Translations under genes and position numbers: made by a program
The notes under the pieces: model-generated
Told to the model about the DNA's origin: nothing
What the model saw: the letters and a program-made list of their open reading frames with translations, nothing else
The model's database searches: none
From: a virus
Lineage: Duplodnaviria > Heunggongvirae > Uroviricota > Caudoviricetes
IMG/VR virus record: IMGVR_UViG_3300026484_000248
Location: 34,711 to 98,710 of that record
DNA length: 64,000 nt
Reading direction: 5' to 3' (one strand)
Shown: in pieces, positions 10,114 to 60,899 of the stretch
Position numbering within the stretch: the first letter of the stretch is position 1
Layout of the letters: each line of letters opens with the position of its first letter

Positions 10114-10125
10114 TGTTTTCCTTTT

Positions 10126-10170
10126 TATATAAATAACTGTAAATATTGTACAATAATATTTATAATTATA
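10126..10170 (+). promoter_or_regulatory. late promoter region (TATAAATA at 10128-10135; TATAAT at 10161-10166) upstream of tail tube paralog 2
   Basis: The motifs lie directly upstream of the RBS GGAGG and the ATG at 10183. Confidence 0.4.
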
Positions 10171-10182
10171 GGAGGAATACAA

Positions 10183-42190: not shown

Positions 42191-42219
42191 CTTTATAATA
42201 AATTATAACATTTTTTTAC
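42191..42219 (-). promoter_or_regulatory. early-type promoter (TGTTATAAT on minus strand)
   Basis: The plus strand reads ctttataataaattataacatttttttac, 20 nt upstream of the dda ATG. Confidence 0.45.
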
Positions 42220-44002: not shown

Positions 44003-44014
44003 TTATTTATATAC
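44003..44014 (-). promoter_or_regulatory. late promoter TATAAATA (minus strand) for gp13-like gene
   Basis: The minus strand reads gtatataaataata, about 20 nt upstream of the ATG at 43985. Confidence 0.4.
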
Positions 44015-45128
44015 TCACTTCTTCAACATATAAACCCACTAGATGACTCAAGTCCTTCTTAATTAGCCAATTCTTAGATTTAGTAGATTTGCCTAACCAA
44101 TTGTTTTTAGTAAATCTTACTAGAGTACTATATATTTCTTTTAATTTAATTTGGGGAACATTTTCGCTGACCAAAACCCCTTTATTAAAAATGTTAAAGA
44201 AACGCCCTTTCTCAATTTTGGTTTTCAATTCTTTCTTTTTGGCTTCTTTAGCTACAGTAGTTAAATTACCATTTTCATTATAAAACTCTTTATTCATAGC
44301 TTTCGAAATTAACTTGCCTCTTATTTTTTCCCTCGATAATTTTTTTCCTTCGTACATCTGCTCTTTCTGCATAGTTATGTTTCTCGCCTTAATAGATTCT
44401 TTGGCTATAGAAGTTGCTACTCCATCTTCATTTATAAACATTTGAGTCCTAGTGAAAGCACTTTTTCTAGCTGATTCTATAAATCTATTTATCGGTTGGC
44501 TGTTACCGTCTAGTATTTTTTTAGTCATAGTATTGAAACGGTTACTCACCATTAGTACTTCTGCCCCGCTTGCCTTTCTAGTTTTTGCACCTTTCTTGGA
44601 AGCTTCTTTGGATATTGAAGTGAGCCTACCTTTATCGTCAAAATAAGGTTTGGTTAGTTTTTCTACCCGTTTCCTACAAGCTTCTTTTTTTCTTGTGGTA
44701 TGTAACCCTCCTACTTCTATAGGTCTTCTCAAAAAATCTTCCCTATCTTTATAAGCCTTTTCTAATTTAACTTGGAACTCACCTTCAGGAATTAGGTCTA
44801 CTTCTGTTATTCTTTTATTCTTAATATCACAGTTATGCATTTTTGTGAATGCCAATAATTGACCATAATCATCTATAGCTTCGGTAAGTAACCAGTGAGC
44901 CTTGTAGTGTTTGCAGTACATTAAATGAACTCCATTCCACGGATTTTCTTTAAGGTTATTATAAGTTTCAAAAAGTTTATTTGGTAGAATGTGATGATGG
45001 CTGGTTTCACCTTTTATTCTATTTTCTTGATTATTTCTTAAACAATAATCTATATACTTCTTTATTTTTTCTGTTGATTTTATTTTAATATCTGAGTCTA
45101 AGAACTCTTGTAGTATTTTATTTTTCAT
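44007..45128 (-). CDS. HNH homing endonuclease with NUMOD3-like repeats
   Basis: It has HHHILPNKLF..NL....WNGVHL..KHYKAHW and repeated ..S/TIAKE..KKG.KTR.. modules. Confidence 0.65.
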   Translation of the reverse strand: MKNKILQEFLDSDIKIKSTEKIKKYIDYCLRNNQENRIKGETSHHHILPNKLFETYNNLKENPWNGVHLMYCKHYKAHWLLTEAIDDYGQLLAFTKMHNCDIKNKRITEVDLIPEGEFQVKLEKAYKDREDFLRRPIEVGGLHTTRKKEACRKRVEKLTKPYFDDKGRLTSISKEASKKGAKTRKASGAEVLMVSNRFNTMTKKILDGNSQPINRFIESARKSAFTRTQMFINEDGVATSIAKESIKARNITMQKEQMYEGKKLSREKIRGKLISKAMNKEFYNENGNLTTVAKEAKKKELKTKIEKGRFFNIFNKGVLVSENVPQIKLKEIYSTLVRFTKNNWLGKSTKSKNWLIKKDLSHLVGLYVEEVSI

Positions 45129-45719: not shown

Positions 45720-45970
45720 TTTTCCCTTTTTCTTTAGGAACTCCTGGCGTTATTAAGTCGACTTTTGTTATACATAGCGTAAAAAGCACTTAACTGGCTA
45801 TATTTACTCACTGCTTCAGTAAATAACTAATGAGTATAATAGTGGCCAGAGTACTAAGAATCCGCTTTGGGAGTATATGATGATGTAAAAATTTGCTAAG
45901 TCCTTTATCGTTTAATATTCTTTTTCCTTGATTATTTACTAAACAGTGATCTATATACTTTTTCATTTAT
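45720..45970 (-). pseudogene. decayed N-terminal fragment of an HNH homing endonuclease (MKKYIDHCLVNNQGKRILNDKGLSKFLHHHILPKRIL..stop)
   Basis: The translation matches the N-termini of 44007..45128 and 50558..51481 and then hits stops. Confidence 0.5.
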
Positions 45971-46217: not shown

Positions 46218-46420
46218 ATGGCACAAATGTCGCCGGGCGTTCAAGTGAATGAGATTGATTTATCAATCGTAGTACCAATGTTAGGAAATGCAACTGCATG
46301 TTTCGCAGGTGTTTTTACAAAAGGTCCAAGTGATAAATTTTTATTAATCACAAATGGAGAAGAATTAATTCAATATTATGGAGGCCCTACTAACGCAAAT
46401 TATAATGACTGGTCAGTTTT
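46218..46420 (+). CDS. tail sheath protein (T4 gp18-like) exon 1 (3' boundary approximate, somewhere between 46417 and 46431)
   Basis: MAQMSPGVQVNEIDLS..GNATACFAGVFTKGP..ITNGEELIQYYGGPTNANYNDW aligns with the T4 gp18 N-terminus (SPGIELKET...ALAGKF.WGP..I..VTNE.DLV..FG.PT...ADYF); the RBS is AAAGGAGAA. Confidence 0.75.
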
Positions 46421-46992
46421 AAAGGCAGCTTAATAATGACAAAAACTGATATAGAAGAATTTGTTAATCCTAATACAGGAAGACTATCAACAAGAATTAA
46501 GTCATATACCGACTTAAGTATTGAAGAATTATACTGTATATATAATGAAATAGAAAAATTTTACTTATAACAAAGTTAGGTTGATTGTAAACAAACTATG
46601 TCAAGTTAATTTTAATGTAAATGTTCTATTACATTAGAAAAATTATTAAGCTCTTTTAATAAGAGCCGTTCTATATAGTAATATATAGAATAATTAACTA
46701 TTGAATTGCTGGGATCACTTGTTAGGTTCTAATACCACAATATATCTGAAAAGAGTATATGAAGGTTTAAAAAATTAGAAATAGAGTCAATCAGCAGCCA
46801 AGCTACTAAGTCCATATAGGATATGTAGAAGGTTCAACGACTATTCCGAAAGGAAGTACACTAGAAGTCTAGTGGAAGTGGTAGTTGCCCAATGTTTGGG
46901 CAAAGATATAGTCTAGTCTTTATGGAGACATAAAGCAGTTCATAAGAGAACGGGATAAGATTAACGACCTTATTCGAATAAATCGTCCAATG
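46421..46992 (+). mobile_element. group I intron 1 (A element 46700-46813, B element 46831-46945; 5' region holds a decayed endonuclease ORF)
   Basis: GAATTGCTGGGATCACTTG...AATCAGCAGCCAAGCTACTAAGTCC (P3-P6/J6-7-like, compare Tetrahymena CAGCCAAGUCCUAAGUC) is followed by GGTTCAACGACTATTCCGAAAGGAAGTA...GATATAGTC...GGAGACATAAAGCAG (P7 ACGACUA/UAGUC G-site, P9); the terminal ...CCAATG precedes the exon. Confidence 0.7.
46436..46570 (+). pseudogene. truncated endonuclease N-terminal module (44 aa) inside intron 1
   Basis: MTKTDIEEFVNPNTGRLSTRIKSYTDLSIEELYCIYNEIEKFYL matches the N-terminal IY..Y..IE module of 63104.. and 60099.. but stops before the zinc ribbon. Confidence 0.45.
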
Positions 46993-48298
46993 TTATAACT
47001 TTTTACAATATGCTAACAAGTTATTAGTTTCAAGAGCAGTAGATGCGAATGGTACGTTTAAGGATTCAGGAAATAAAATTTATGCAGTAAATGAAGACGG
47101 AAAAGTGGAAGTTACAAACGCTCCATATTATATCCAAGTCGGTTCTGTTGTTAAATTTAATCCAGATCAAGAAAACGAATATACTGTAACTGCTATTGAA
47201 GAACCAACAAAGGCTGTAAAGCAAGTTGATAAAATTAAAATTAATGCTGCTGAAGAAGTAGATTATACTGTTAAAAATAGAAATGAAAGTGTAACTTATT
47301 CTGCTGGTTCTGATGACACAGTTGAAGATATTGCGTCTAACTTAGGTTCTTTAATCGAAAGTATAGATACAAATGCTACTAATGTTGCTGTAGATGGTGC
47401 TGTTATTACAGTTACTGCTTCAATTGCAGGTGTTGCTATGACTAATGAAATTATTGCTGGTAATATGACTGTAACTACTACTACTGAAAATAGTGAAGGT
47501 GAGTCTTACGAGCTAGTATTTGCAGATGTTAATGGTCAAACTGTTGATTTTACACAAAAAGATCCTGATGGGAATATTATAAGTGGTGCTGATATAGGGG
47601 CTCCTGTACTTGTTAAATATGCGGCTCAAAATGCATTAGTATGTGCTCCAAGAGACGGTGCCACTTTAAAAAGTGCTCACGAGTTAAAACCTGAAGCAAT
47701 TCATATTGCAAATGAAGCAGATTATGAAGTACAAGAAATGAGTATTCCAGTTACTGGAAATTCAAAACTTAAATTTATGGCCAAATCAAGTGGTGCATTA
47801 ATGAATGGTATTGAAATTGCTATCGCAAGAGAAGCAGATTTCGCAAGTGGTTCACAAAATGTTTTTAACGGACTTGTATTAAATGATTTCTTTGAAGCTA
47901 AACCTTTAGAGTCTAAGAAAGAGATTGCAATTGTAATAAGAAAAGATAAAAAAGTTACTGCTTCTTACATTGTTTCATTAATTCCGGGTTCAAAAGATTA
48001 CAGAAATAAATCAAATTATATTGAAGATATTATCAACAAATATGATGAGTTAGTTTTTGTTAAAGATAATACAAGTATTAATGATTTACCAGATTCAAGA
48101 TTATATACTGCTGCTAAATTAGCATTAGACGGTACTATAATTACTCCTGCAAGTAATAAAGTTCTTTATACTTCAAATGGTGGAGACGGTTATGTAAACT
48201 TTGGTGATATTGAATTCGCATATGGTTCAGTTTCTGATAATACTATCTTTGGTAAAAGTGCTAATAATACGGATTCTTCTCCTATTAGCTATGCTGCT
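46993..48298 (+). CDS. tail sheath protein exon 2 (about 435 codons; begins within ..YNFLQYANKLLVSRAVDANG..)
   Basis: The open frame starts at 46982; FLQYANKLLVSRAVD matches T4 gp18 FLQYGNDLRVVRAVDR directly after the exon-1 homology; it ends ...SPISYAA followed by TAA and an intron A element. Confidence 0.75.
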
Positions 48299-50272
48299 TA
48301 ATCAAGTAATTGATTAATGAACATTCATCTAATTGCTGGAAACACTCGGTAAGTTTTGGGTACTCGTTTATGAAAATAAGCAGTGATAATCCTAAAAATA
48401 GAGTCAATCAGCAGCCAAGTTAATTCAAATAATAAAATAACAAACAAAAATTAAAAGATACTTTTGGTAGGGTATCTTTTAATTACTACTTTTTTCCTAT
48501 AATTCAATATTTGTAAATTTTTAACAGAAATGATATGGTATATCTATATGCATTTTTATATATGGTGCCTTCTTGAGAGTGTGAAAGTTTTAATTCTTGA
48601 ATTAAAGCATTGTAGTTAGAATCTAATTGTAAAGTGTCAGTAGTCATGGGGTGATTAACCTCTTATCTTTTGATTAATAATAGTCCTGTCACTGAAGTTT
48701 TATCTTAATTAAGCTCTCAACCGTGACTGAGAAAGAGCTTAATTAATATAAAACCTCTTATTTGTTTTATTTAAAAAAGTTATTTTAATCCAAATTCTTC
48801 TTTATCATATGCCTTTTGTAAAGCGTTAAAATATTCCTCTTTTGTATAATCTCCATATTCTTCACTATGTCTTTCTATATGTAATTCGGAATTTAATTAG
48901 ACTTTAAGACTTTTTAATGTATAATTATAATATATAAAGAGATATTTAAATTATTATTGTTAAAAATGTTAATTCAATGATATTGCTAATCCCTAATAAG
49001 GACTACGGAGTATTTAAGAAGAAGTAAGTTAAAAATGTTAATTCAATGATATTGCTAATCCCTAATAAGGACTACGGAGTATTTAAGAAGAAGTAAGTTA
49101 GACTGTTTAAGAAACAAACATTGACTTTTTGGATAACTTAAAATATTGCTAATCCCTAATAAGGACTACGGAGTATTTAAGTAGAAGTAAGTTAAAAATG
49201 CTAATTCAATGATATTGCTAATCCCTAATAAGGACTACGGAGTATTTAAGAAGAAGTAAGTTAGACTGTTTAAGAAACAAACATTGACTTCTTTGACTTC
49301 ATTGAATTGATATTTTTAACTATAATAATTTAATTCATCTAAAGTTTTTTTGAGATTGTGTTGCATCATAATTTTTAAACATTTTGTTCCTTTGAGTAGT
49401 ATTGGAAAATACTTAATTTTTAATGGCTAACAAGCGGATTTTATCTTCAATTATTTCTATGCTTTTCATTGCTTCTTCGGTATCCATTTCCCTTAATTCC
49501 TTTATTTTATCGTAATATCCCTTAAGTTTTATCTCAAAACTGCTTTCTAATAAAATTCCCTAAATGTTTTCATGATTTACCCTTTTATAGATATTATAAA
49601 TAATAATGTAGTGATAATATATGTATATGTATTATCCTCAAGTTATTTGAAATTAAAAGGTTCAACGACTATCCCGAGAGGGAGTAGGGCCAAGTGGTCC
49701 GAAATGGTGAATATCCTCACTACCAAAATAGAGGATAAAGATATAGTCTGATCTATATGGAGACATATAGCAATCTAATTTGTTATCAACGATTAGATTT
49801 TGGTATAAGAATTAACGAGCTTATATGAACATAAATGAACAAAGAAGAAGTTGATCAAAAAGAAATAATATACTAAAGGTAGTAGGTATATTTTTTTGTG
49901 GTCCTACTATATAGTAATATATAGAAAGAATTATTTGAATTGCTGGAACATCTTGATAGTTCCAAGTAGGATATTAGGCAGTGATGACCTAACGACCCCT
50001 AAAAATCTTGGAAATAGAGACAATCAGCAGCTAAGTTAATTAAAACGTTTTCAACAGAAGATAATTTACAAATTATACTCTTTGATAAATAGAAAAATGG
50101 ATTAATTAAAAAGTTCAACGACTATCCCGAGAGGGAGTAGGGTGCAAGTGCATTCGAAGCGGATAACATCCTGTATATCTAACAGGATGATGATATAGTC
50201 TAGTCTTTATGAAGACATAAAGCAGTTCATAAGAGAACGGGTTTGAAGTAACGACTCAAATTGAATACAACG
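48299..50272 (+). mobile_element. composite intron region: intron copy 2 (A 48328-48428, B 49659-49775, with 310-bp tandem repeats and ORF debris) followed by or nesting intron copy 3 (A 49935-50040, B 50112-50225)
   Basis: There are two full sets of A/B core blocks; no credible coding exon lies between B2 and A3 (stops in all frames within about 30 nt), suggesting a nested twintron-like arrangement or a decayed copy. Confidence 0.55.
48960..49290. repeat. tandem repeat inside intron 2: four copies of core ATATTGCTAATCCCTAATAAGGACTACGGAGTATTTAAGAAGAAGTAAGTT arranged as two ~125-bp double-units
   Basis: The repeat is visible directly: ...gttaattcaatgatattgctaatccctaataaggactacggagtatttaagaagaagtaagtt... 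occurs 4 times. Confidence 0.8.
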
Positions 50273-50366
50273 ATAGATATAGTTATTGCAAATGAAGCAG
50301 CGCGTACTCAGGCGGGAGCATTAGCATCAGATAGAGCGGATCAAAATTACGGTTCGGTTGCGGCGT
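50273..50366 (+). CDS. tail sheath protein small exon (..IDIVIANEAARTQAGALASDRADQNYGSVAA; boundaries approximate)
   Basis: It is a GC-richer coding island between intron B3 and A4; the frame is open only here; it ends AA followed by TAA like the other exons. Confidence 0.45.
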
Positions 50367-51676
50367 AAGCCTCAATGTAAAACTTATTTAATTGCCGGAA
50401 CATCTTGTTAGGTTCTAAGTACAATATTATCCTGAAAAGAGATAACGACCTGTAAAAATCTTAGAAATAGAGAAAATCGGCAGCGAAGATTCCAAAACAT
50501 AAAAACTTTGAGTTTGGTAGCCAAAGTTTTTATAAATAAATTAAAAAGGAGAATATTATGTTTAATAGAATATTAAATATTTTTAAACAATCTAATTTAG
50601 AAATAAAATCTATACAAAAATTAGAACAGTATATAAAATATTGTATTAAGAATAATAATCAAAAAAGAATAAAATTTGAAACTGCTCATCACCATATTCT
50701 ACCAAATGCATTATTTCCGGAGCTGAGCAATTTAAGAGATACTCCGTGGAACGGAGTATATCTTATGCATTTTGATCATTATTATGCTCATTGGTTGCTT
50801 ACTGAAGCATTATATTCTCCAAGTATGCTATTTGCTTTTTGTGCTATGCATAATAAAGATATAAAAAATAATAGATTGGAGGAAAAAGATCTTATAGCAA
50901 AAAGCGATTTTCAACTTAAAATGGAAGAAAGAGGGATTTATATTTCTTTAAACAATAAAAGAAGAGCAAAAGAAGGAACCTTATTCGGCGGATATAAATT
51001 TTGTAGACTTGAATCTGAGAAGAAAAGACAACAAACTCTAAGAAAAAACCCGGACATACAGCGTCAAATGACACAAAATCAGAAAAAAACTCTCAACGAC
51101 CCTGCTTGGAAAAGTTCTAAAGGAAAGGATAAAGTATCTAAATGGCAAGCTACCAGAAAATTAAAAACTGAGGATGACGAACTAAGAAGAATAGAGAAAT
51201 TTAAGGTATCGTTTGCCAAAAGTTTCGATAAAGAAAAGCACTATCAAAAAACATTAAAAGCAGCAAAGTTTAAAAATTTTTGTATATTTGACAAAAATGA
51301 TAATCTAGTTTACCAATATGAGGGTTTGCTGACAGAATTTTGTAAGAATAACAATCTACCAATACAAGCTCTTAAGAAATCAAGTAGAAATAGTCCTATT
51401 TATGCATCTAAAGCAGGACTACGAAACGCTAAAATTAAAGGTTGGGATAAATACGAAGGATATTACTTAGTTTTGGCATAACAATAGTCCGAAATGACTA
51501 TAAACTAGGAATAACGTTCAACGACTATCCTCAAAGGAGGAGTACACTAGAAGTCTAGTGGAAAAGGTAAGCATCCTTTTGCTACCAAAATAAAAAGGAT
51601 GAAGATATAGTCTAATCTATACTGAGAAGTATAGCAGTCGCTAAAACGACGGTATTATATGTAACGATATAATATG
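50367..51676 (+). mobile_element. group I intron 4 (A 50390-50492, HNH endonuclease ORF between core halves, B 51514-51648, terminal ...ATAATATG)
   Basis: It has the A variant AATTGCCGG...ATCGGCAGCGAAG and the B block CGTTCAACGACTATCCTCAAAGGAGGAGTA...GATATAGTC...GAGAAGTATAGCAG. Confidence 0.65.
50558..51481 (+). CDS. intron-encoded HNH homing endonuclease (paralog of 42216..43145 and 44007..45128)
   Basis: It has HHHILPNALF..NL....WNGVYLMHFDHYYAHW; the late promoter TATAAATA at 50531-50538 and an RBS AAAGGAG are upstream; it is located between the A and B halves of intron 4. Confidence 0.65.
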   Translation: MFNRILNIFKQSNLEIKSIQKLEQYIKYCIKNNNQKRIKFETAHHHILPNALFPELSNLRDTPWNGVYLMHFDHYYAHWLLTEALYSPSMLFAFCAMHNKDIKNNRLEEKDLIAKSDFQLKMEERGIYISLNNKRRAKEGTLFGGYKFCRLESEKKRQQTLRKNPDIQRQMTQNQKKTLNDPAWKSSKGKDKVSKWQATRKLKTEDDELRRIEKFKVSFAKSFDKEKHYQKTLKAAKFKNFCIFDKNDNLVYQYEGLLTEFCKNNNLPIQALKKSSRNSPIYASKAGLRNAKIKGWDKYEGYYLVLA

Positions 51677-51877
51677 AATATAAAGTGTATCTGTTTCATT
51701 GGAGCAAGGTTCGAAGATGTTGTTGGTTTACAAAGTGCTAAAATAGTTGAAAATCTTATTAAAGATGCTCAAACTGGTGAATTAAATAGTGGTAATACTG
51801 CTAACTCATTCAACGCATTTTTTGGTAACTACAAATATCAATACGACAAATTTAATGATAAATTCAGATGGGTTTTA
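51677..51877 (+). CDS. tail sheath protein exon (NIKCICFIGARFEDVVGLQSAKIVENLIKDAQTGELNSGNTANSFNAFFGNYKYQYDKFNDKFRWVL; boundaries approximate)
   Basis: It is the only open frame between intron 4 and intron 5; it is flanked 3' by TAA TAG and an A element. Confidence 0.45.
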
Positions 51878-52257
51878 TAATAGAAGCTCCGGTTTATAGT
51901 AATATAAACTTGAAAACGAATCTAATTGCTGGAACATCTTGTTAAACTTATATACCACAATATACCTGAAAAGAGTATATGACGGTTAGAAAAATATAAG
52001 GTAGAGACAATCAGCAGCCAAGCTACTAAGTTATATAAGGTAGATATAATATGTAGAAGGTTCAACGACTATTCCTGAAGAGGAAGTACAGTGCAAGTTT
52101 AATGGCGCTGGAAATGGTTCGCATCCCGAAACGGATGAAGATATAGTCTAAACTATGTGGGGACATATAGTGGTATATAAAAACAAGGACCAAAAAAAGT
52201 TTTTATATAAACCAGATCTTAAAGTTGCGTTTAAGATTGGAATATTTTTTATAATTC

Positions 52258-53520
52258 TTATTTCTCAAAAGAAGACAAGAGCTCTTCTTTTGTTATACTA
52301 CATTTTCTATTTTTAGATAAATTTTTGCCAGACACCAACATCTCCAAATTACATATATTACCTATAATATTAGCAGGCATATTTTCTTTAAATCCCTGAA
52401 AAATAGAGTACTTATGATCTAGATGATAATTGTCTACTTGTATGCCTCTTTTTTCTATGTTTTCGAGGACACTTAAATCATTTTGATTTGTATATCTCCA
52501 AACCAACCTAGTATAATCTTTAAAATCTTTTACTTGATCCTCAGTTATCCAATTACCTAGTTTTTCATTAGTTTCTTTCATCTTTAATGCACTTCTTTCA
52601 TAACTGTTTAGGCCATTTTCGTCTATGTTGTTTAGTTTTGATACTTTCGCTTTTAATGCCCCCCTTTCGTAACTGTTTAATCCTTTTTCGTCTATGTTGT
52701 TTAGTTTTGTTTGGTGTTTCTTTTGTAATGCAGATTTAGATGTGCATTTTTTTCTAGTGCTTTCCATTTGAAAGGAATTTTCAACTCCATATTTAAGTAA
52801 CATTGTTTGTTTTCGTAATTCTAAGTTTAATGAATGTTTTGAAGCGCACTGTCTTGAGCAATATTTTTTATATCCTTTTGCTACGGATACAAATTTTGAT
52901 TCCTTATTACAAAATAAACATTTATTTTTTTCTTGTGTATTCGTATTTTCCTTAAAGAAAATATGATAAATTTTTTCTTTAATTAATTTTTGTTGTAATA
53001 ATTTATGATTATTAATATATGGCATATATAATTTATATTCTTGTTCTAAATAATTTTTATAAAACCATTTTTTATTTAAGCGTTGTGTCTCTATTATAGT
53101 TCTACTATTGTTTGTACCAATTAAATGGTTTAAAACAAGTTCTTTAAATGAAATTAATGCTTTATTTTTCTTTATGCCTTTATTTCTTCCTTTTGTGTTA
53201 AATTTTGCTGAACAAGAAAGATTACAAAATTTCTTATAGCCCTTATTTACATCTATAAACTTTGTTTTTTCATCACAATATTTACAAGTAGAATATATAT
53301 AGTTTCTATCATTGGGATTTTCTCCAGAACTATTTTGTAATTTTTCTTCTAACAATTTATTTTCTCTCATAAACACAAAAAGTTTTTCTTGATTTTGAAA
53401 AATTTCAGAAAATTCTAGGGAATTTTTTATAAAAAATTCTTTGTTTAGTCTTTTAGTATTTATCTTGTTTTTTACATTATATAAATAATTTTGTATTATA
53501 TAAATTTTATTGGTAATCAT
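52258..53520 (-). CDS. HNH homing endonuclease (C-terminal HNH YHLDHKYSIFQG..N..NLEMLVSGKNLSKNRK; N-terminal zinc-ribbon repeats), encoded antisense within intron 5
   Basis: It has Cys4 modules (KFIDVNKGYKKFCNLSCSAKF; KFVSVAKGYKKYCSRQCASKH) and a 66-bp tandem in-frame duplication (KLNNIDE.GLNSYER.ALK x2) at about 52585-52720. Confidence 0.6.
   Translation of the reverse strand: MITNKIYIIQNYLYNVKNKINTKRLNKEFFIKNSLEFSEIFQNQEKLFVFMRENKLLEEKLQNSSGENPNDRNYIYSTCKYCDEKTKFIDVNKGYKKFCNLSCSAKFNTKGRNKGIKKNKALISFKELVLNHLIGTNNSRTIIETQRLNKKWFYKNYLEQEYKLYMPYINNHKLLQQKLIKEKIYHIFFKENTNTQEKNKCLFCNKESKFVSVAKGYKKYCSRQCASKHSLNLELRKQTMLLKYGVENSFQMESTRKKCTSKSALQKKHQTKLNNIDEKGLNSYERGALKAKVSKLNNIDENGLNSYERSALKMKETNEKLGNWITEDQVKDFKDYTRLVWRYTNQNDLSVLENIEKRGIQVDNYHLDHKYSIFQGFKENMPANIIGNICNLEMLVSGKNLSKNRKCSITKEELLSSFEK
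52585..52720. repeat. 66-bp tandem in-frame duplication inside HNH gene 52258..53520
   Basis: It encodes KLNNIDE(K/N)GLNSYER(G/S)ALK.K twice. Confidence 0.7.
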
Positions 53521-53580
53521 TTTGTTGGTCCTTAATTTTTACTTTTACTTATATAATCAAAAAGAATTATAAAAAAATTG

Positions 53581-53800
53581 TTCTGTAGCAGGTGATGTTG
53601 CTGGTCTTAGAGCTGATACAAATACTTCATTAAATACTTGGTGGGCATCTGCTGGTCTTGATAGAGGTCAAATAAAGAATGCACAAAAAATTTCTTTCAA
53701 TCCTAATTTGGGGCAAAGAGATTTCTTATATAAAAATAAGATTAATCCAATTGTTTCTTTTCCGGGTCAAGGGAATGCTATAAAATATTGTAGCGCAGCA
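53581..53800 (+). CDS. tail sheath protein exon (..SVAGDVAGLRADTNTSLNTWWASAGLDRGQIKNAQKISFNPNLGQRDFLYKNKINPIVSFPGQGNAIKYCSAA; boundaries approximate)
   Basis: It is an open frame between intron 5 and intron 6 with the sheath C-terminal-domain flavour (NPIVSFPGQG); it ends AA followed by TAG and an A element. Confidence 0.5.
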
Positions 53801-54150
53801 TAGTAATATGTTGTATAAATGAATCGAATTGCTGGGACATCTTGAAGATATAGTACACCACAATAATCAAGAAATTAGATTATGAAGGTTAGAAAAGATG
53901 CTATATAGAGAAAATCAGCAGCCAAGCTACTAAGTCCAATGGATAAGTAGAAGGTTCAACGACTATTCCGAAAGGAAGTAGGAATCAAGTGATTCCGAAG
54001 CGGTTCACATCCTAATATTAAGTTAAGGATGAAGATATAGTCTGACCTATGTGGAGACATATAGAAAATTAAATAAATGAAAAAATAAGGGATTTAATTT
54101 GGTTGTAAGTAACGATTACAATTTAACATATTTGAGTATGGGGTCAAAAG
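53801..54150 (+). mobile_element. group I intron 6 (compact, ORF-less; A 53825-53937, B 53953-54065)
   Basis: A and B blocks are adjacent; the 3' end is tentatively placed at ...TATTTGAGTATG by analogy with other copies. Confidence 0.55.
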
Positions 54151-54329
54151 ACTTTACAGAGTAAACCAAGTGCGTCTTTGAAAATGGTTTATATACATAA
54201 TTATAAAATTGGGGAGTTTTATAATTATGCAGAAGCAAGTAATAACTTTCTATTTATAAAGAATGATAAAATAAGCGTGATTACTTTCTCTTTTTACGCA
54301 AAAATAATCAGGCAGATATAGTATATAAA
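54151..54329 (+). CDS. tentative tail sheath exon (..GQKTLQSKPSASLKMVYIHNYKIGEFYNYAEASNNFLFIKNDKISVITFSFYAKIIRQI)
   Basis: It is a 60-codon open frame immediately after intron 6; it ends with GGCAGATAT|AGTATATAAAAATG, resembling the 5' junction of intron 6 (GCGCAGCAT|AGTAATATG); there is no homology support. Confidence 0.3.
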
Positions 54330-54573
54330 AATGATTAAAAAATGTAATGATTATAAAGTAATTAGTTGTAAATGTTAATTTCAAGACAAAATCGTTCTAA
54401 AATTAGAAATTATTAAGTAATATTTTGTTATAATAATTTTACTTTTATAAATACTATTATATATTTTAATTATGATATTTAGGGGTTTTGTCAGGCTCAC
54501 TCTAAATATCATAATTAAGATATAAAAAAATTAAACGAGCCTGACAGCCGTTTATAATTAACGGAGATTAACA

Positions 54574-55917
54574 ATGAGGCAAAATTTTATCAATTTATAT
54601 ACTGCAGAATTAAAAAGATTAAAAGATTCAGACGTACTAAATTTTGCTGACTTTAACAAAGATAAAATTCAAGCTATCAAAAAAATGCTGATTTTTTTCA
54701 ACACAACATCAGATAACGAGCTTAATAAATTGCCTTCTATCATATTAAAATTCAACAAAGATAATTATATTTCTAATCACGAGCTAAAATTTATACAAAC
54801 AAGATACTATCATCTAATTAAACATAATTCCATCAAAAATTCTAAGTCAAACAAAATTAACAAATCTTATTTATTTGGTTTTGTTGAAGAAACAATTAAA
54901 GGTTTTTGTGTTATAAAGGGTAATAAATTGCATAAAAATAATTCAGTTTATGAAAAAACAAAAGAATGTAAAAATTTTATGAGTAAAATAGTACATATGC
55001 TAAAGAGTTATGAAGATATCATTAAAGAACAAGACGAGAAACTTTTTATTAGAAGTATTAAGAAATTCAATAATGCTAAAATTCAACGTATAGAGCCAAA
55101 TAAAGATTACAAAGCACCGTTCTATTTTGAAAAAGATAGAATAGAAGCCATAAATTATCTACAAAATACAAATTTACTTATTCAAATACCGTCAAAAAAT
55201 GCTAACGGGAGATTATATAACCGATACTGGAATAAATTAAAAAAAGAAGACAAAATAAATTTACTGCCTTCTTATACTTCTTATGATATTAATACATCTT
55301 TATATCAATTTTTGTTGCTGGAGGCAAAGAAGCATAATTTAGGATACAGCAATGTAAAACACTATATAGAAAACAAACAAGAATTAAGACAATTCATCTC
55401 TAAAGATACATTTAATAGTTTGCCTTATCATATAGAAAAAGGATATAAAATTTATGGCCAACAGTATATACTAGATTTAAGTGAAGAAATAAAATGTATA
55501 TTAAATACTATATTAAAAGGTGATTCATTATTTAGTATGTATGAATCATGGGAATCAACGATTATACAAGATTTTATAGATAAAAATGGTTTAGATAACT
55601 ATGTTACAAACCATGATGAAATTCTAGTTCATAGTAAAGAGAAAGTATCTTATGTGCCTGGTATATTTGGTATAGAAACAGCCGAAGAAAGAAAAGAAAT
55701 AGTTAAGGTATATAATAGCAAAACTCAAGAAGATTTTATAAGAGAAAGAGAAGAAAGAATAAAAGAACAAGATAGAAGAAGTATTATTATTCATTACAAA
55801 GGTGTCTTAAAGAGAACAAAGAATTTTTATAAGAGACAAGGATACATATATAAAATTGAATCATTAAAGGTTTCTTTTAATGAAAATTTATTAACTGAAT
55901 CATTATTAATTTTCTAA
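54574..55917 (+). CDS. intron-associated ORF of unknown family (447 aa, Lys/Asn-rich)
   Basis: It is preceded by a strong hairpin GTCAGGCTCAC...CGAGCCTGACAGCC (54490-54548) and an RBS GGAG; no HNH, GIY-YIG or LAGLIDADG motif is recognisable by eye. Confidence 0.4.
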   Translation: MRQNFINLYTAELKRLKDSDVLNFADFNKDKIQAIKKMLIFFNTTSDNELNKLPSIILKFNKDNYISNHELKFIQTRYYHLIKHNSIKNSKSNKINKSYLFGFVEETIKGFCVIKGNKLHKNNSVYEKTKECKNFMSKIVHMLKSYEDIIKEQDEKLFIRSIKKFNNAKIQRIEPNKDYKAPFYFEKDRIEAINYLQNTNLLIQIPSKNANGRLYNRYWNKLKKEDKINLLPSYTSYDINTSLYQFLLLEAKKHNLGYSNVKHYIENKQELRQFISKDTFNSLPYHIEKGYKIYGQQYILDLSEEIKCILNTILKGDSLFSMYESWESTIIQDFIDKNGLDNYVTNHDEILVHSKEKVSYVPGIFGIETAEERKEIVKVYNSKTQEDFIREREERIKEQDRRSIIIHYKGVLKRTKNFYKRQGYIYKIESLKVSFNENLLTESLLIF

Positions 55918-55918
55918 A

Positions 55919-56236
55919 TTAATCTTCTAACGACAAAAATCCTTCATTACCCAAATAACATAAGAAATCTCTATAATCTAATTCATCTAGCCTTCCTTCT
56001 CTTTTCATATAATTTAGGTAAGTAAACATCAATTCCCTACTATATAAATTATAATCTTCTGGGTTCCTTGGGTTTTTTCCTGATTGTAAAAGTAAAAGCA
56101 ATTCTTTTAACCTTAATGAATTTTCTTCATCTATATTTGAATTCGAGTCTATATTTTTCATTATTTCTTTAATTTTTTTATCACTTATATTCTTTTCTAG
56201 ATTAAAAATATAATCCTCCATTTCGTTTTCTAACAT
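55919..56236 (-). CDS. hypothetical small protein encoded antisense in intron 7 region
   Basis: It is a 105-aa ORF convergent with 54574..55917. Confidence 0.3.
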   Translation of the reverse strand: MLENEMEDYIFNLEKNISDKKIKEIMKNIDSNSNIDEENSLRLKELLLLLQSGKNPRNPEDYNLYSRELMFTYLNYMKREGRLDELDYRDFLCYLGNEGFLSLED

Positions 56237-56639
56237 TATAAATCCTTTTTTAATATTTATAAATAATTATAAGTTATGTAGAAATATATAATGTGTTCTT
56301 TGTAAAAAGAAGCCTTTCATTATCTGTCAGGCGCACTTAAAACCCATTGAATTGCTGGGACATCTTGAAGATATAGTACACCACAATAATCAAGAAATTA
56401 GATTATGAAGGTTAGAAAAGATACTATATAGAGAAAATCAGCAGCCAAGCTTCTAAGTTATAGTATATAATACGAAGAAGGTCCAACGACTATCCTGAAA
56501 AGGAGTAGGAAACAAGTGTTTCCGAAGTGGTGGGAATTATTATATTATCTCCCCAGATAAATTTTATAATAATTGTGATATAGTCTGAACTTCTAAGGAG
56601 ACTTAGAGAATTTGTTTAACGAACAAATGTAACATAATG

Positions 56640-56986
56640 TTGACAGAATAAACTAATTGTTCTGTATAAATCCATTGAATTGCTGGGACATCTTGTTAGA
56701 CTTTAGTACCACAATATATCTGAAAAGAGTATATGAAGGTTAGAAAAACTAAAGGTAGAGAAAATCAGCAGCCAAGTTGTTAAGTAGAACTATTATTTAA
56801 TAATTCTATATACAAAAGGTTCAGAGACTATCCGAAAGGAGTAGGAACTAAGCAGTTCCGAAGTGGTGGACATCCAAAAGGGTGAAGATATAGTCCAATC
56901 TTTATGGAGACATAAAGCAAAAATTAATTAATTAATGAATAATTAATTTTTGATATTTGTGTTGCGAACAAATATTAATATGAATG
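56640..56986 (+). mobile_element. group I intron 8 (compact; A 56676-56785, B 56818-56920; terminal ...ATATGAATG)
   Basis: It has B variant GGTTCAGAGACTATCCGAAAGGAGTA; only about 37 nt separate it from intron 7, with stops in all frames, so a coding exon 8 is doubtful. Confidence 0.5.
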
Positions 56987-57110
56987 AAATGTTAGAGGTT
57001 TATTTAATACTTTAGAGCGAGCAATTAGTCGTATGGCTAAATATTACCTGAATTATAACGGGTACGGAATTAGTAATAATACCGAAGATTGTAACTATAA
57101 GCTAGTTGCA
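56987..57110 (+). CDS. tail sheath protein exon (..NVRGLFNTLERAISRMAKYYLNYNGYGISNNTEDCNYKLVA; boundaries approximate)
   Basis: It is a GC-richer open frame between introns 8 and 9; it ends A followed by TAG and an A element. Confidence 0.45.
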
Positions 57111-59408
57111 TAGATATAAATCGAATTGCTGGGACATCTTAATAGGTTGTAGATAGGATATTATCTCGAAAGAAGATAACGAACCCTTAAAATTCTACAG
57201 ATAGAGACAATCAGCAGCCAAGCTTCTGTAAAATGAAGAAGGTTCAACGACTATTCCGAAAGGAAGTACACTAGAAGTCTAGTGGAAGTGGTTTACATCC
57301 TAAAAGTTAGGATGAAGATATAGTCTAATCTTTATGGAGACATAAAGCAGAAAAATTAATTAATTTTATAATATAATTATATTATAAAAACTTACTCAGG
57401 AGCAGTAAAAAAAATGAAAAAAGAAGAAATTCAAAGAAACTTATTAGATATTAAAGGAAATTTAAAATTTACTAAATTAAAAAAAGAATATCCTGGGATA
57501 TCCAAAGAAGATTGTTATAAAATCTTCTTTAATAAAACTGGTTTATGTCTAAAAGGACATAAACTAAAATTTATATCTTTTAAACAAGGCTATAGAGAAT
57601 GTAAAGTTTGTCAGGACTTAAATAACTTCTATAGTATTAATAATCTAAAAGAATACAGCAAAAATAACTTATTTACAAGTACGCAAATAAAAAAAATTTT
57701 CGAATATCATAATCTAAGCACAAAAGACATATATTTATGGAATAATAGTAAAAAATATTGCCCTATATGCAACAAAGAAAGAAAGTTTATAAATCAAGTA
57801 GGTTATGCTAAAACTTGTTCAGCTAAATGTGGAGCTAAACTTTTAAGACCAAAATTAAGCCAAGAACAAGAAAAAGAAAGACAGTTAAAGAAACAGAAAA
57901 CTTGTATAGAGAAGTATGGGGTAAAATGTACACTTGAATTAATAGATAATTCAGGCCCAAATAATGCTATGGCCAAAGCAGATTCTATAGGTAATATTAA
58001 GAAAAAGAAAACTATGCTAGAAAGGTATTATGTAGAATATCCTACTCAAAATAAAGATATATTAAAGAAAATTAAAGAAACTAGGAACAAAAACAAAAAG
58101 GATGATACTTTTGGGTATCATCATACTAGGAGACATTTTACTAATATAGGAGATTTTAATGAAGATTTTATAAAAGTAAATTTTATAAAAGAATATTTCC
58201 TTGAAAAGGCTTTTGAGGAATATTTCAATTGTAGTAGGAATACTACTTTAAGAATAAAAAGATTCTTTAATATGTGGGATGAACATTTATCCTTTCCGGA
58301 ACAAATAATTAAAAAACATCTTAAAGATTTTATTAAGACAAAGAAAGTAATACCTCCATATGAAATAGATTTTTATAACGAAAAGTTAAAATTTGGTGTA
58401 GAAGTTCATGGAGACTACTGGCATTCAATAGAATCAGGAACTGATAAAAATTATCATAAAATGAAGTCAGATATGTGCAAAGAAAAGGGAGTTGTCCTTT
58501 ATCAATTTTTCGAAAATGAAATTATAAATGATGAAGATATTGTAGCCTCAATGATCTCGTCTAAGATGGGTAATAATAGAAGGGTGTACGCCAGAAAATG
58601 TATTATAAAAGCGGTAAATGTAAAAGACTCTAAGGATTTTTGTAAGAAAACACATTTGCAAGGTTACGCAAAGTCTAAATTTAAGTTGGGTTTATACTAT
58701 AATAATGAATTAATACAATTAATGACAATAGGTAAACCCAGATACACTAAAGAAGCAGAATATGAAATAATAAGATTTAGTTCGAAATTAAATACCACTG
58801 TAGTGGGGGGATTTTCAAAACTATTAACTTATTTTGAGAGAAAATATAAACCCAAAAATATTATATCTTATGCCAATAGAAGATGGAGCGAAGGAGATGT
58901 GTATGAAAAGACAGGTTTTACTAAAATTAGAATAACTCCTCCTGGTTTTAGGTATTTTAAAGGAGGTAAATACTTTGCAAGGGAAGAGCTTCAAAAACAT
59001 AAATTAGAAGGAAAACTTAATATCTATAATAACAAAATTAGCACTAAAGAAAATATAAAAAATAACGGATACTTAACACTATATGATAGCGGGAATATAG
59101 TATATATAAAAAAAGGAGAAGATATTGAAAGATGATAAACAATATAGACTGAGATTAAAAATACCATTAGTCAACAAATGTACAGAAGATATTAATTTGA
59201 CTATTTTAGTTTCCAGTTTGTTGAAAGAATACAGTAAAAATAAGAATTTAAGAAGCAAGATTTTAAAGAACATAAATAAATAAATATATAAATAAATATA
59301 TAATTTATAATAACATTACTTAATAATACAGAGGAAGTTATAAAAAACGGTCTAAGGTACAATAGTATATTAATTTTTCGGTATTTGTTTAACGAACAAA
59401 TATGAATG
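57111..59408 (+). mobile_element. group I intron 9 (A 57122-57232, B 57241-57360 nearly identical to B1; endonuclease ORF after P9; terminal hairpin ATTTGTTTAACGAACAAAT followed by ATGAATG)
   Basis: Core blocks are present; the 3' end ...TATTTGTTTAACGAACAAATATGAATG is shared with introns 7 and 8. Confidence 0.6.
57414..59135 (+). CDS. intron-encoded homing-endonuclease-like protein of the zinc-ribbon + shared C-terminal module family (third member)
   Basis: It has a CLKGHKLKFISFKQGYRECKVC zinc ribbon, EVHGDYWHS, and the ARKCIIKAVNVKDSKDFCKKTHLQGY...VGGFSKLLTYFERKYKPKNIISYANRRWSEGDVY module, about 45% identical to 8341..10113 and 19646..21274. Confidence 0.6.
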   Translation: MKKEEIQRNLLDIKGNLKFTKLKKEYPGISKEDCYKIFFNKTGLCLKGHKLKFISFKQGYRECKVCQDLNNFYSINNLKEYSKNNLFTSTQIKKIFEYHNLSTKDIYLWNNSKKYCPICNKERKFINQVGYAKTCSAKCGAKLLRPKLSQEQEKERQLKKQKTCIEKYGVKCTLELIDNSGPNNAMAKADSIGNIKKKKTMLERYYVEYPTQNKDILKKIKETRNKNKKDDTFGYHHTRRHFTNIGDFNEDFIKVNFIKEYFLEKAFEEYFNCSRNTTLRIKRFFNMWDEHLSFPEQIIKKHLKDFIKTKKVIPPYEIDFYNEKLKFGVEVHGDYWHSIESGTDKNYHKMKSDMCKEKGVVLYQFFENEIINDEDIVASMISSKMGNNRRVYARKCIIKAVNVKDSKDFCKKTHLQGYAKSKFKLGLYYNNELIQLMTIGKPRYTKEAEYEIIRFSSKLNTTVVGGFSKLLTYFERKYKPKNIISYANRRWSEGDVYEKTGFTKIRITPPGFRYFKGGKYFAREELQKHKLEGKLNIYNNKISTKENIKNNGYLTLYDSGNIVYIKKGEDIER

Positions 59409-59670
59409 TAAATGGTTTGAATTCAATGATGTATATACAAGAAATAGATTTGTTGCTACTATTAAACCTTTCTTAGAAAGTGTTAAAGCTGGTAGAGGAG
59501 TTTATGACTTTTATGTTAGATGTGATGAAACTAATAATACACCACAAATTATTGATGCTAATCAGTTTGTTTGTGATATTGCTGTTAAACCTACAAGAGT
59601 TGCAGAGTTTATTACTCTAAATTTTGTGGCCATAGGAACTGGCGTAGAGTTCAGCGAGATTTTTGTATAA
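59409..59670 (+). CDS. tail sheath protein terminal exon (..KWFEFNDVYTRNRFVATIKPFLESVKAGRGVYDFYVRCDETNNTPQIIDANQFVCDIAVKPTRVAEFITLNFVAIGTGVEFSEIFV*)
   Basis: It has the conserved sheath C-terminal signature (..VKP.R.AEFI.L.FV..G.GV.F); TAA at 59668-59670. Confidence 0.7.
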
Positions 59671-59788: not shown

Positions 59789-60010
59789 TTGTACTTTTGG
59801 CTTTATATAAATAATATAAAAGACCGCGAACTTGTCTTATTCCGCAAGGACAAAATTATGAAAATCACAAAACAATACATAACAGAAAACCTTTTAACTA
59901 AAAAGAAAGGCCTAAATGCACAAAAATTAAGAAAATACAATATAACTATATCTATAGAAGAAATATATTGCATATTTAACGATTTGGATTATATTAAAGA
60001 AAAAAAATAA
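59789..60010 (+). pseudogene. truncated duplicate of an endonuclease N-terminal module (73 aa)
   Basis: ITKQYITENLL...IEEIYCIFNDLDYIKEKK duplicates the start of 60099..60899 (ITKQYIENYLIKKNGS... begins in its upstream region). Confidence 0.4.
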
Positions 60011-60098: not shown

Positions 60099-60899
60099 TT
60101 GATTAAGAAAAATGGGTCGTTAAATCCGAATATAATGAAACAAATTTATACAAGTGCTAAAGATGTGTATCTGATATATTACGATATAGAAGTCCCCAAA
60201 TGTGTATGTGATAAAGAGCTAAGTTTTATTAGTTTCAAAGCAGGGTTTGTTAAACTTTGTAACTCCTGTTCTAGAAAAGACCCAGAAAGAAAAGCCAAAG
60301 TTTTAGAATCCCTAAAGAAAACTAATCTAGAAAGATATGGTGTTGAACATTACTTTAATAAAAAACAAGGCCAAAAAACAAGGATAGAACGATATGGTGA
60401 GCCCTTTTATAACAACCGTGAAAAAGCAGTCAAAACTTGTAAAGATAACGATTTATATGCTAAAGGTAGGCAAAAATTCAAAGATAGTTTAACCGAAGAA
60501 GAATATAAGGAACATTATAAAAAAGTATTTGAAAAAGTTTATGAAACTAAACTAGCTAAATATGGCGATAGGAACTACAACAACTCACTAAGTGGTCAAG
60601 AAGGTAAAAGGAAAACTATGGAATCTCAAGGATTATGGATTCCTCTCGACCAAATATCAGATTGGGAGCTTTATAAAAGAACTGTAAGAAAACAAACAGA
60701 AATTAATTATTCTCTTTATAAAGATAAAATAAACCCAAGTAATTATAATAGAGTTCTTTGTGGGAAAGACGGTCATCAACTCGATCATATTATTTCTGTA
60801 CAAGAAGGATTTTTAAATAATGTTCCTTCTTATATAATAGCTTCAGAAGATAATTTGCAGATGCTTACTTGGTCTGAAAATAGAGCCAAATGGGCATGA
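60099..60899 (+). CDS. HNH homing endonuclease (N-terminal PKCVCDKELSFISFKAGFVKLCNSC zinc ribbon, KYG repeats, C-terminal HNH GHQLDHIISV..NLQMLTWSENRAK)
   Basis: The motifs can be read directly; it lies between the sheath end and the portal gene. Confidence 0.65.
   Translation: MIKKNGSLNPNIMKQIYTSAKDVYLIYYDIEVPKCVCDKELSFISFKAGFVKLCNSCSRKDPERKAKVLESLKKTNLERYGVEHYFNKKQGQKTRIERYGEPFYNNREKAVKTCKDNDLYAKGRQKFKDSLTEEEYKEHYKKVFEKVYETKLAKYGDRNYNNSLSGQEGKRKTMESQGLWIPLDQISDWELYKRTVRKQTEINYSLYKDKINPSNYNRVLCGKDGHQLDHIISVQEGFLNNVPSYIIASEDNLQMLTWSENRAKWA

Follow-up and report, generated by a model that had tools for sequence, protein, structure and literature searches.

Nine putative group I introns in one tail sheath gene from an uncultured T4-like phage

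How could a phage express its tail sheath protein, of which each virion requires well over a hundred copies, from a gene whose coding sequence is scattered over 13.4 kilobases (kb)? The question is raised by positions 46218-59670 (plus strand) of a stretch of 64,000 nucleotides (nt), here called the window, from the IMG/VR record IMGVR_UViG_3300026484_000248. An original prediction had proposed that a sheath gene is split at this locus by nine group I introns of one family. We found that the locus resolves into ten exons (2,310 nt) and nine introns (11,143 nt, 83%), with all nine pairs of conserved intron blocks recovered and with boundaries within a few bases of those proposed. Based on comparison with sheath proteins, intron models and related phages, this is very probably a functional tail sheath gene of the gp18 type, carried by an uncultured T4-like phage and interrupted by nine group I introns of the phage IA type.

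The exon map was built using the sheath protein of phage CP30A and two metagenomic relatives (P0005 and P0017) as guides in tblastn, which gave ten collinear coding pieces. Exon ends were fixed by restoring the residues of the guides, by the U that closes each 5′ exon and by the G that closes each intron; in the resulting splice map, U is the last base of all nine 5′ exons and G the last base of all nine introns. Predicted ligated junctions include GACTGGT|TCCAATG and, around exon 8, GTGCGT|TTGACAGAAT|AAATGTT. Exon 1 (46218-46413, 196 nt) encodes M1 to W65 plus the first base of F66, was found with all three guides and carries the Pfam domain Gp18_domIII_N, and exon 2 (46986-48253, 1,268 nt) covers the variable middle domains of the sheath and has 17 homologs. 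These are followed by an 18-nt micro-exon 3 (49838-49855; AACAAAGAAGAAGTTGAT, NKEEVD), exon 4 (50273-50341, 69 nt; IDIVIANEAARTQAGALASDRAD), exon 5 (51686-51873, 188 nt), exon 6 (53581-53781, 201 nt), exon 7 (54135-54175, 41 nt; VWGQKTLQSKPSA), a 10-nt micro-exon 8 (56640-56649; TTGACAGAAT), exon 9 (56987-57049, 63 nt) and exon 10 (59415-59670, 256 nt including the stop codon), which carries the conserved sheath C terminus (Pfam Phage_sheath_1C, 7.3e-16). Exons 2, 4 to 7 and 9 were placed by tblastn and the splice map, exon 3 is colinear with intron-free alleles in four relatives (L017, L016, L006 and L002) and exon 8 was placed by the splice map, guide pairing and intron-free alleles. Coding had been predicted to break at about 46420 and resume at about 46993, with a last exon at 59409-59670; the refined positions are 46413, 46986 and 59415-59670.

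Joined in order, the ten pieces form a single open frame of 769 codons without frameshift or stop, and the predicted full-length protein (~84 kDa) would contain junction-spanning peptides including NTIFGNKEEVDIDIVIANEAAR, PSAFDR, INVR and MAKYYLFEFNDVYTR. As anticipated in the original prediction, it is one continuous sheath homolog: Gp18_domIII_N, Phage_sheath_1 and Phage_sheath_1C occur in their normal order (residues 27-82, 554-653 and 656-756), and T4 gp18 structures in the PDB (9mkb and 3j2m) match it with E = 1.4e-79 over gp18 residues 2-654, covering residues 2-177 and 334-767 of the joined protein. The FDRINVR motif of T4 gp18 runs unbroken over the joins between exons 7, 8 and 9, and the residues restored at every junction are invariant from T4 to this phage clade. 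The CP30A sheath aligns over residues 1-631 with 37% identity (E = 3e-145).

Relatives assembled from other samples provide a direct comparison with uninterrupted genes. In the IMG/VR relative L017, an uninterrupted sheath coding sequence (CDS) of 2,313 nt aligns to the 2,310-nt joined CDS at 75% nucleotide identity with no gaps at the nine junctions, and a second IMG/VR relative, L016, has an intron at the first site only and is colinear at the other eight. The exact 10-nt size of exon 8 is confirmed by intron-free alleles, since L006 and L002, like L016, read ttgacagaat|taatgttagagg across it. The ratio of nonsynonymous to synonymous substitution rates (dN/dS) of the joined CDS against three relatives is 0.22-0.39, and the sheath gene is therefore under purifying selection and not decaying. 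An intact portal gene lies ~1.8 kb downstream on the same strand, and tblastn with the sheath guides revealed no second sheath gene in the window.

We next consider whether the intervening sequences, numbered I1 to I9, are group I introns. The Rfam group I covariance model (RF00028, curated gathering threshold 50 bits) gave six full-length matches above threshold across the whole window, all on the plus strand between 46645 and 57347, together with one transfer RNA (tRNA); no group I match was found in window positions 1-46200. The model thus recognizes the group I core, and seven of the nine introns score above threshold: I6 (90.6 bits, for 53772-54064 scanned alone and not in the whole-window scan), I9 (87.6), I1 (80.3), I3 (78.7), I5 (76.5), I7 (74.8) and I8 (73.2). 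I2 and I4 fall below it because inserts of 1,237 and 1,024 nt in their P6 loops split the cores. A permissive scan returned sub-threshold matches at 49617-49770 (I2, 43 bits, with 20 bits for its 5′ half) and 51390-51634 (3′ half of I4, 39.7 bits) plus a fragment at 48334-48438, and nhmmer recovered both halves of each core, termed A and B (67 and 99 bits for I2; 91 and 91.5 bits for I4).

These halves correspond to the two conserved blocks of the original prediction, whose helix assignments were borne out: the A block spans J3/4-P4-P5...P4′-P6, and the B block contains P7 (GACUAU/AUAGUC) and P9. In the window, the A-block and B-block strings each occur eight times with at most three mismatches, compared with 0.09 and 0 expected. 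Profile hidden Markov models (HMMs) of the blocks found exactly nine A and nine B copies, strictly alternating and all on the plus strand within 46697-57351, with none in the rest of the window. The 3′ strand of P7, GATATAGTC, has exactly nine copies in the 64 kb, one per intron.

For structural comparison, large inserts were removed, the nine resulting mini-introns were aligned, and pairs were counted on a hand-drawn core of 47 pairs in nine helices (P3, P4, P5, P6, P7 with its pseudoknot, P7.1, P7.2, P8 and P9). Standard pairs occupy 98.8% of 422 cells (the 47 core pairs across the nine introns, I2 and I4 included), and 25 of the 47 pairs change on both sides, as in P4 of I4, where U-A is replaced by C-G. 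Sliding one strand by 1-3 columns reduced pairing to 34-48%, and none of 500 shuffles reached the observed values. The P7 pairing GACUAU/AUAGUC is invariant in all nine introns and so contributes no covariation evidence. Every canonical helix is kept in all nine cores, which are full-size at roughly 280-350 nt. P7.1 and P7.2 are present in every intron, with compensatory change in two of three and six of six pairs, respectively, and these two hairpins place the introns in the IA type usual in phages.

Splice sites can be evaluated through the internal guide sequence (IGS), which in group I introns pairs with the 5′ exon (P1) and the 3′ exon (P10). In all nine introns the IGS G is found at a homologous position, shortly before P2/P3, and when the nine guides were compared with all exon ends in a 9 × 9 matrix, the cognate pairing ranked first, alone or in a tie, for each intron. 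I1 (46414-46985, 572 nt; core 46645-46935, IGS G at 46665) has a P1-loop insert of ~250 nt and pairs by 4 base pairs (bp) in P1 and 2 bp in P10; its IGS position and sequence are conserved in the orthologs of L002 and L006, and the site is empty in L003, L005 and L017. I2 (48254-49837, 1,584 nt; half-cores 48322-48424 and 49617-49777; P1 4 bp, P10 2 bp) has all of its core pairs intact in the mini-intron alignment, and I3 (49856-50272, 417 nt; core 49874-50222, with a P6 region of 74 nt) pairs by 3 bp plus an extension in P1 and by 5 bp with one base skipped in P10. I4 (50342-51685, 1,344 nt; half-cores 50381-50493 and 51390-51642) has 5 and 4 bp. In I5 (51874-53580, 1,707 nt; core 51864-52170), 1.4 kb separate P9 from the 3′ splice site, and the IGS AGAAGCUC gives a P1 of 4 bp and, with a 3′ exon at a distance of 1.7 kb, a P10 of 6 bp. 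I6 (53782-54134, 353 nt; core 53772-54064), described as the most compact, has 6 and 5 bp. The clearest pairing is that of I7 (54176-56639, 2,464 nt; core 56276-56608), in which 2,155 nt separate the 5′ splice site from the IGS G downstream of it (56331) and whose guide UCUGUCAGGCGCACU is despite this distance complementary to the ligated junction AGUGCGU|UUGACAG, with 7-8 bp in both P1 and P10. I8 (56650-56986, 337 nt; core 56640-56917), which lacks P2, has a P1 of 7 bp (ACAGAAU/GUUCUGU) and a P10 of 2 bp, and I9 (57050-59414, 2,365 nt; core 57044-57347, terminal hairpin and 3′ splice site at ~59380-59414) has 5 and 3 bp. In-frame stop codons occur 2-48 codons past each 5′ splice site.

Micro-exon 8 is shared between two of these pairings: its bases UUGACAG form P10 of I7 and its bases ACAGAAU form P1 of I8, and the two overlap on ACAG. 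The two helices cannot coexist, which suggests that splicing is ordered. Alternative boundaries were rejected. Placing the 3′ splice site of I8 five nt downstream, where alignment of the 3′ motif would put it, introduces a stop codon. A 15-nt exon 8 changes the invariant FDRINVR to FDRINFR and does not leave enough space for a P1 of 7 bp. A second IGS-like string at 54495 (uuugucagGCucac) was likewise considered as a nested or duplicated intron within I7 and rejected, as neither block profile matches there; nor is it an intron remnant, being one arm of a 9-bp hairpin (GTCAGGCTC...GAGCCTGAC, loop of ~40 nt, ~54490-54549) directly upstream of the GGAG ribosome-binding site of an open reading frame (ORF) of 447 amino acids (aa). 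This hairpin, one arm of which resembles the I7 guide, may be a regulatory or processing element for that ORF or a chance resemblance.

Long ORFs are found in four introns, three of them homing-endonuclease-like (one antisense) and one without a known family. The I4 ORF (50558-51481, plus strand, 307 aa) lies in the P6 loop and encodes an HNH-type homing endonuclease (phrog_655, 3.3e-15; phrog_12434, HNH). The I9 ORF (57414-59135, plus strand, 573 aa) is situated between P9 and the terminal hairpin and matches phrog_3339 (1.5e-102), phrog_559 (6.8e-72) and, weakly, DUF559. The I5 ORF (52258-53520, minus strand, 420 aa) lies past P9, matches phrog_23051, phrog_5104 and, weakly, phrog_3339, and has a C-terminal HNH-like motif (HLDH...N...N) when read by eye. 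The P1 loop of I7 contains both the 447-aa ORF (54574-55917, plus strand), which has no known family, and a 105-aa ORF (55919-56236, minus strand). No maturase-like domain was found in any intron ORF, and I3, I6 and I8 carry no ORF.

The remaining introns carry apparent remnants. The P6-loop insert of I2 has no long ORF, and its 47-aa antisense ORF (48540-48647, minus strand) corresponds to the first 36 codons (97% identity) of a 636-aa antisense ORF that is intact in the orthologous intron of L003, the rest of which has been lost or replaced in the window phage. A 44-aa ORF in the P1-loop insert of I1 (46436-46570, plus strand) and a 73-aa ORF after the sheath gene (59789-60010, plus strand) share the motif SIEE[LI]YCI[YF]N and are probably N-terminal remnants of one endonuclease family. 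Large antisense intron ORFs (303-743 aa) also recur throughout the clade, at L003:11693-13603, L005:11847-14003, L006:11826-14057, L007:11223-12851 and L002:3446-4357 (all minus relative to the sheath gene), some with weak similarity to HNH or GIY-YIG homing endonucleases. To our knowledge, antisense intron ORFs have not been described in phages.

Occupancy of the insertion sites varies widely among relatives, with sheath introns numbering zero in L017, one in L016, three in L002 and five in L006, compared with nine in the window phage; L003, L004, L005 and L007, for which contigs are incomplete, have at least 2-3 of the same kind. Twelve sites are used in the clade (codons 65, 71, 488, 494, 517, 571, 580, 605, 647, 660, 664 and 686 in window-protein numbering), all in the conserved N- or C-terminal parts and none in the variable middle. 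The window phage fills nine of these, one at residue 65 and the rest at residues 488-686. For each of the nine, some relative has an intron-free allele, where alignments that read through into introns (at junctions 2-3 in L003 and L004 and at junctions 1, 7 and 8 in L002) were discarded as evidence of empty sites. Sites 580, 647 and 664 are occupied in the window phage only among the relatives compared; no relative examined has an intron at the I6 or I8 site, and L006 has one at the same site as I9. With zero, one, three or five introns in relatives across 12 sites, the introns have evidently been gained and lost. The homing endonuclease genes (HEGs) in peripheral loops of some of the introns and the presence/absence polymorphism at fixed sites among colinear sheath homologs suggest that the introns are mobile or formerly mobile elements.

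The nine introns could in principle have arisen by recent multiplication of one intron within the gene, through reverse splicing or ectopic homing, and the original prediction had favored such active proliferation, describing nine near-identical pairs of conserved blocks. Consistent with this, all nine have one architecture and long invariant motifs, three sites are filled in the window phage alone, and exact tracts are shared by I6 and I7 (74 and 28 nt within 103 nt that have one mismatch and include variable peripheral helices), I1 and I9 (56 nt) and I1 and I8 (35 nt). Only short core motifs are near-identical, however: between introns of the gene, the A (~115 nt) and B (~130 nt) segments are 48-82% identical, except for the A segments of I6 and I7 (94%). 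Comparison with introns of Vibrio phage D181, the Pseudomonas phage PhiPA3 and a Staphylococcus Silviavirus gives 41-71%, an overlapping range. PhiPA3 and Silviavirus introns also have the terminal hairpin with a UAACGA loop, and when phage genomes were searched at the DNA level with exon 1 through exon 2, no close relative was found in the collection and the intron part alone matched, at 71-77%, in unrelated phages. Because introns of unrelated phages share these features, the A and B blocks are class-wide, and the nine introns appear to represent old lineages, each specific to its site, instead of the outcome of recent copying. Best matches are indeed same-site introns in other phages, namely I2 with L003 (97-98%), I1 with L002 and L006 (84-90%), I4 with L003 (89%) and the B segment of I7 with L002 and L006 (86-89%), and these four are nearer to them than to any intron in their own gene. 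The long exact tracts are patches in diverged introns, which fits gene conversion better than duplication of whole introns, and we interpret them as recombination, or recent exchange, among copies. Multiplication within the gene is thus improbable as the origin of the set, and only the long exact tracts point to recent exchange inside the gene.

Several observations weigh against a functional gene with nine self-splicing introns. The case is built on DNA comparison, and a 29-nt string of ligated exons 7, 8 and 9, as expected from a spliced transcript or an identical intron-free allele, had no match in the metagenome contigs searched. Nine serial splicing events look costly in a very highly expressed late gene. 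The I5 ORF resembles homing-endonuclease families weakly, and the 447-aa ORF of I7 has no recognizable nuclease domain or family match. The weakest part of the case is the short pairings, with a P1 of 3-4 bp in I1, I2 and I3 and a P10 of just 2 bp in I1, I2 and I8; together with a P1 that must close over 2.1 kb in I7 and 3′ splice sites 1.4 kb (I5) and 2.1 kb (I9) beyond the cores, these mean that efficient unaided splicing of all nine introns is not assured. It is accordingly possible, if on balance unlikely, that the introns are real and some are not autonomous (I7, I5, I9 and I1-I3 being the candidates), requiring a phage or host maturase, an RNA chaperone or a helicase, or splicing in vivo only. 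Canonical helices are complete in all nine cores and no intron ORF has a maturase-like domain, and introns that self-splice despite ORFs in P1, P6 and P9 loops are known (T4 td, nrdB and sunY; Physarum PpLSU3), all of which argues for autonomy, although the uncharacterized 447-aa protein of I7 could be a helper and, in a Bastillevirinae study, four of eight spliced intron-containing genes were spliced in infected cells only (PMC11878797). The weak pairings and the decayed ORFs of I1 and I2 could also indicate that the phage is defective or its genome decaying and that the sheath gene is a pseudogene, with at least one intron no longer splicing. This is very improbable given an open frame of 2,310 nt in ten pieces, the dN/dS values, the invariant residues restored at every junction, the maintained core pairs, intact late neighbors such as the portal gene and the lack of a second sheath gene in the window. 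Lastly, exact repeats of 24-74 nt between introns in a metagenome assembly might have produced a chimeric or expanded contig, but the chance of this is slight: exons are unique, correctly ordered and each present once, the repeats are shorter than typical read lengths, and relatives from other samples have the same introns, sites and micro-exons. An ENA contig (117 kb) and a Logan contig, both reached through the I7 ORF, are also 100% identical to the most repetitive part of the window, over 51574-58917 (7,344 nt) and over 54015-56378 (2,364 nt), respectively, although the ENA, Logan and JGI contigs may share one sample and would then demonstrate reproducible assembly and not independent sampling. 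The source samples are ENA ERZ27262648, SRA SRR7968107 and a JGI counterpart.

Under the preferred reading of a functional gene with nine introns, which all of the computational tests support, the late pre-mRNA would be made as one 13.4-kb transcript, in which each intron folds its own core and its IGS pairs with the 5′ exon, which ends in U, before pairing with the 3′ exon. Each intron would be removed by two guanosine-initiated transesterifications, as in standard group I chemistry, and nine removals would yield a 2,310-nt mRNA encoding a 769-aa sheath protein. By analogy with T4 introns, the in-frame stops past the 5′ splice sites may keep ribosomes out of the ribozyme cores. The intron set would have been built up as site-specific lineages that related phages share and exchange through homing when they co-infect, with ORF-less introns riding along with ORF-bearing neighbors in gene-conversion tracts. 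The distance from an ORF-less intron to an ORF-bearing one is 10-69 nt in each case, so that carriage in the same tract is plausible.

We tentatively consider a further model, which we regard as rather unlikely, in which the sheath gene of the clade is an intron reservoir, equivalent in phages to cox1 of fungal mitochondria. The tightly packed C-terminal array, in which exons of 10-201 nt separate eight introns over a span of 200 codons, would be transferred between co-infecting phages as a single co-converted unit, and new introns would be made in place. I6 would then be a candidate for an intron created in place by recombination of resident copies and ectopic insertion, because its site is occupied here only and its 5′ half, and not its 3′ half, resembles I7 (99% identity).

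Among known systems, the T4 introns of td, nrdB and nrdD (sunY) are IA2 introns with homing endonucleases encoded in the P6 loop or past P9, have an in-frame stop soon after the 5′ splice site and spread by homing between co-infecting relatives. The window introns resemble them in structural class, including P7.1 and P7.2, in ORF placement and in the early stop, and differ in the antisense ORFs of I5 and I7 and the P1-loop inserts of I1 and I7. T4 has one intron per gene, in nucleotide-metabolism genes, whereas nine are found here in one virion structural gene. The Twort gene Orf142 has three group I introns and a 23-nt exon that can be skipped (Landthaler & Shub 1999, via PMC10136302). It is similarly a gene of a virulent myovirus with several IA-type introns and a very short internal exon between two similar introns, and it differs in having three introns instead of nine and an exon of 23 nt instead of 10 and 18 nt, the host gene here being a gp18-type sheath gene; splicing and exon skipping were demonstrated experimentally in Twort, whereas splicing is predicted here. 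In the Silviavirus L015 (Twortvirinae; Staphylococcus phage CIFT_MFB_MRSA28, PV017447.1), an intron shares the P9.1 sequence GUUCAUAAGAGAAC and the terminal hairpin with its UUAACGA loop with I1 and I3. Four Intron_gpI features are annotated in a row at 1240-2393 of L015, just downstream of the sheath gene and adjoining ‘virion protein 5’, and some share the P9.1 sequence or terminal hairpin with the window introns.

Many introns per genome have been reported for other uncultured phages. Genomes of crAss-like Zeta phages contain as many as 14 introns, and one major capsid protein gene, termed ‘intron-rich’, is in five fragments (PMC7886860), and Jug phages average 18.5 introns per genome of ~206 nt each, with genes in two to three fragments (PMC12880540). 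In both, as here, essential or structural genes are fragmented by group I introns with homing endonucleases, but there the introns are distributed among many genes, each in two to five pieces, whereas the window phage has nine introns in one gene, with no further group I introns found by profile HMMs or Rfam in the other 50 kb of the window, and its cores are larger than the ~206-nt Jug elements. A 2025 survey put the number of group I introns in phages at slightly more than 100; the maximum for a single gene in Bastillevirinae was two to three (PMC11878797). In overall behavior, the nearest analogue is the cox1 intron reservoirs of fungal mitochondria, such as that of Agaricus bisporus (PMC2987802), in which one conserved essential gene likewise has many group I introns of variable occupancy, micro-exons, decaying HEGs and far more intron than exon. 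Those reservoirs are organellar, with nuclear-encoded splicing factors and slow turnover, in contrast to a late gene of a lytic phage with very high expression.

The nearest cultured relatives are Campylobacter phages of the Eucampyvirinae (CP30A and IBB_35; 44% identity in the portal and 37% in the sheath), a group with many homing endonucleases and genes split by introns and inteins, including introns reported in the terminase gene (PMC3322345). CP30A has two HEGs directly after its sheath gene, and the sheath genes of Eucampyvirinae are uninterrupted, compared with nine introns here. Literature searches that combined the tail sheath with introns and homing endonucleases turned up no sheath gene reported to have multiple introns.

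The wider genome offers additional observations. Paralogs of the intron ORFs, in the form of free-standing genes and fragments that resemble homing endonucleases, are abundant, at 42216-43145, 44007-45128, 45767-45966, 8341-10182 and 20705-20875 on the minus strand and at 60099-60899 and 63120-63740 on the plus strand; two of them flank the sheath gene, and the I4 ORF belongs to an HHHILP family, as do those at 44007-45128 and 42216-43145. The single tRNA gene of the window lies at 14583-14656 (minus strand; RF00005, 46.5 bits). In L011 (9359-12438) and L012 (9359-11421), the large terminase is annotated in two ORFs, one N-terminal and one C-terminal, beside a homolog of the 447-aa ORF, which suggests another split essential gene in the clade.

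A practical consequence concerns annotation, as gene callers report only fragments of this sheath gene. Public protein databases contain truncated sheath proteins of the clade with intron read-through tails such as ...SPISYAA, ...QMVA and ...QILGSVA (P0002, P0003, P0004, P0005, P0011, P0014 and P0015), and gene callers therefore systematically mis-annotate these genes.

Group I introns in phage genes are textbook knowledge and the mechanism considered here is ordinary; the load and packing are unusual. In the literature searched, reported loads are one to three introns per phage gene, or five fragments in crAss-like phages, and nine is well above these counts. If functional, the gene would set a new upper bound on the self-splicing load that a lytic phage tolerates in a late structural gene (nine ribozymes, 83% of the gene). 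It would also be a natural test bed for exons of 10 and 18 nt, a P1 formed across 2.1 kb and antisense ORFs inside introns, and the bases of exon 8 shared by P10 of I7 and P1 of I8 would impose an order of splicing and invite exon skipping. Relatives with zero, one, three, five and nine introns may further serve as a graded series for studying intron accumulation, hitch-hiking of ORF-less introns and competition between phages. In PhiPA3, a single intron endonuclease acts as a weapon against a rival phage (PMC11620839). If the sheath gene of this clade is indeed an intron reservoir, the array would be less a tolerated load than a multi-nuclease weapon that overwrites a rival’s sheath gene.

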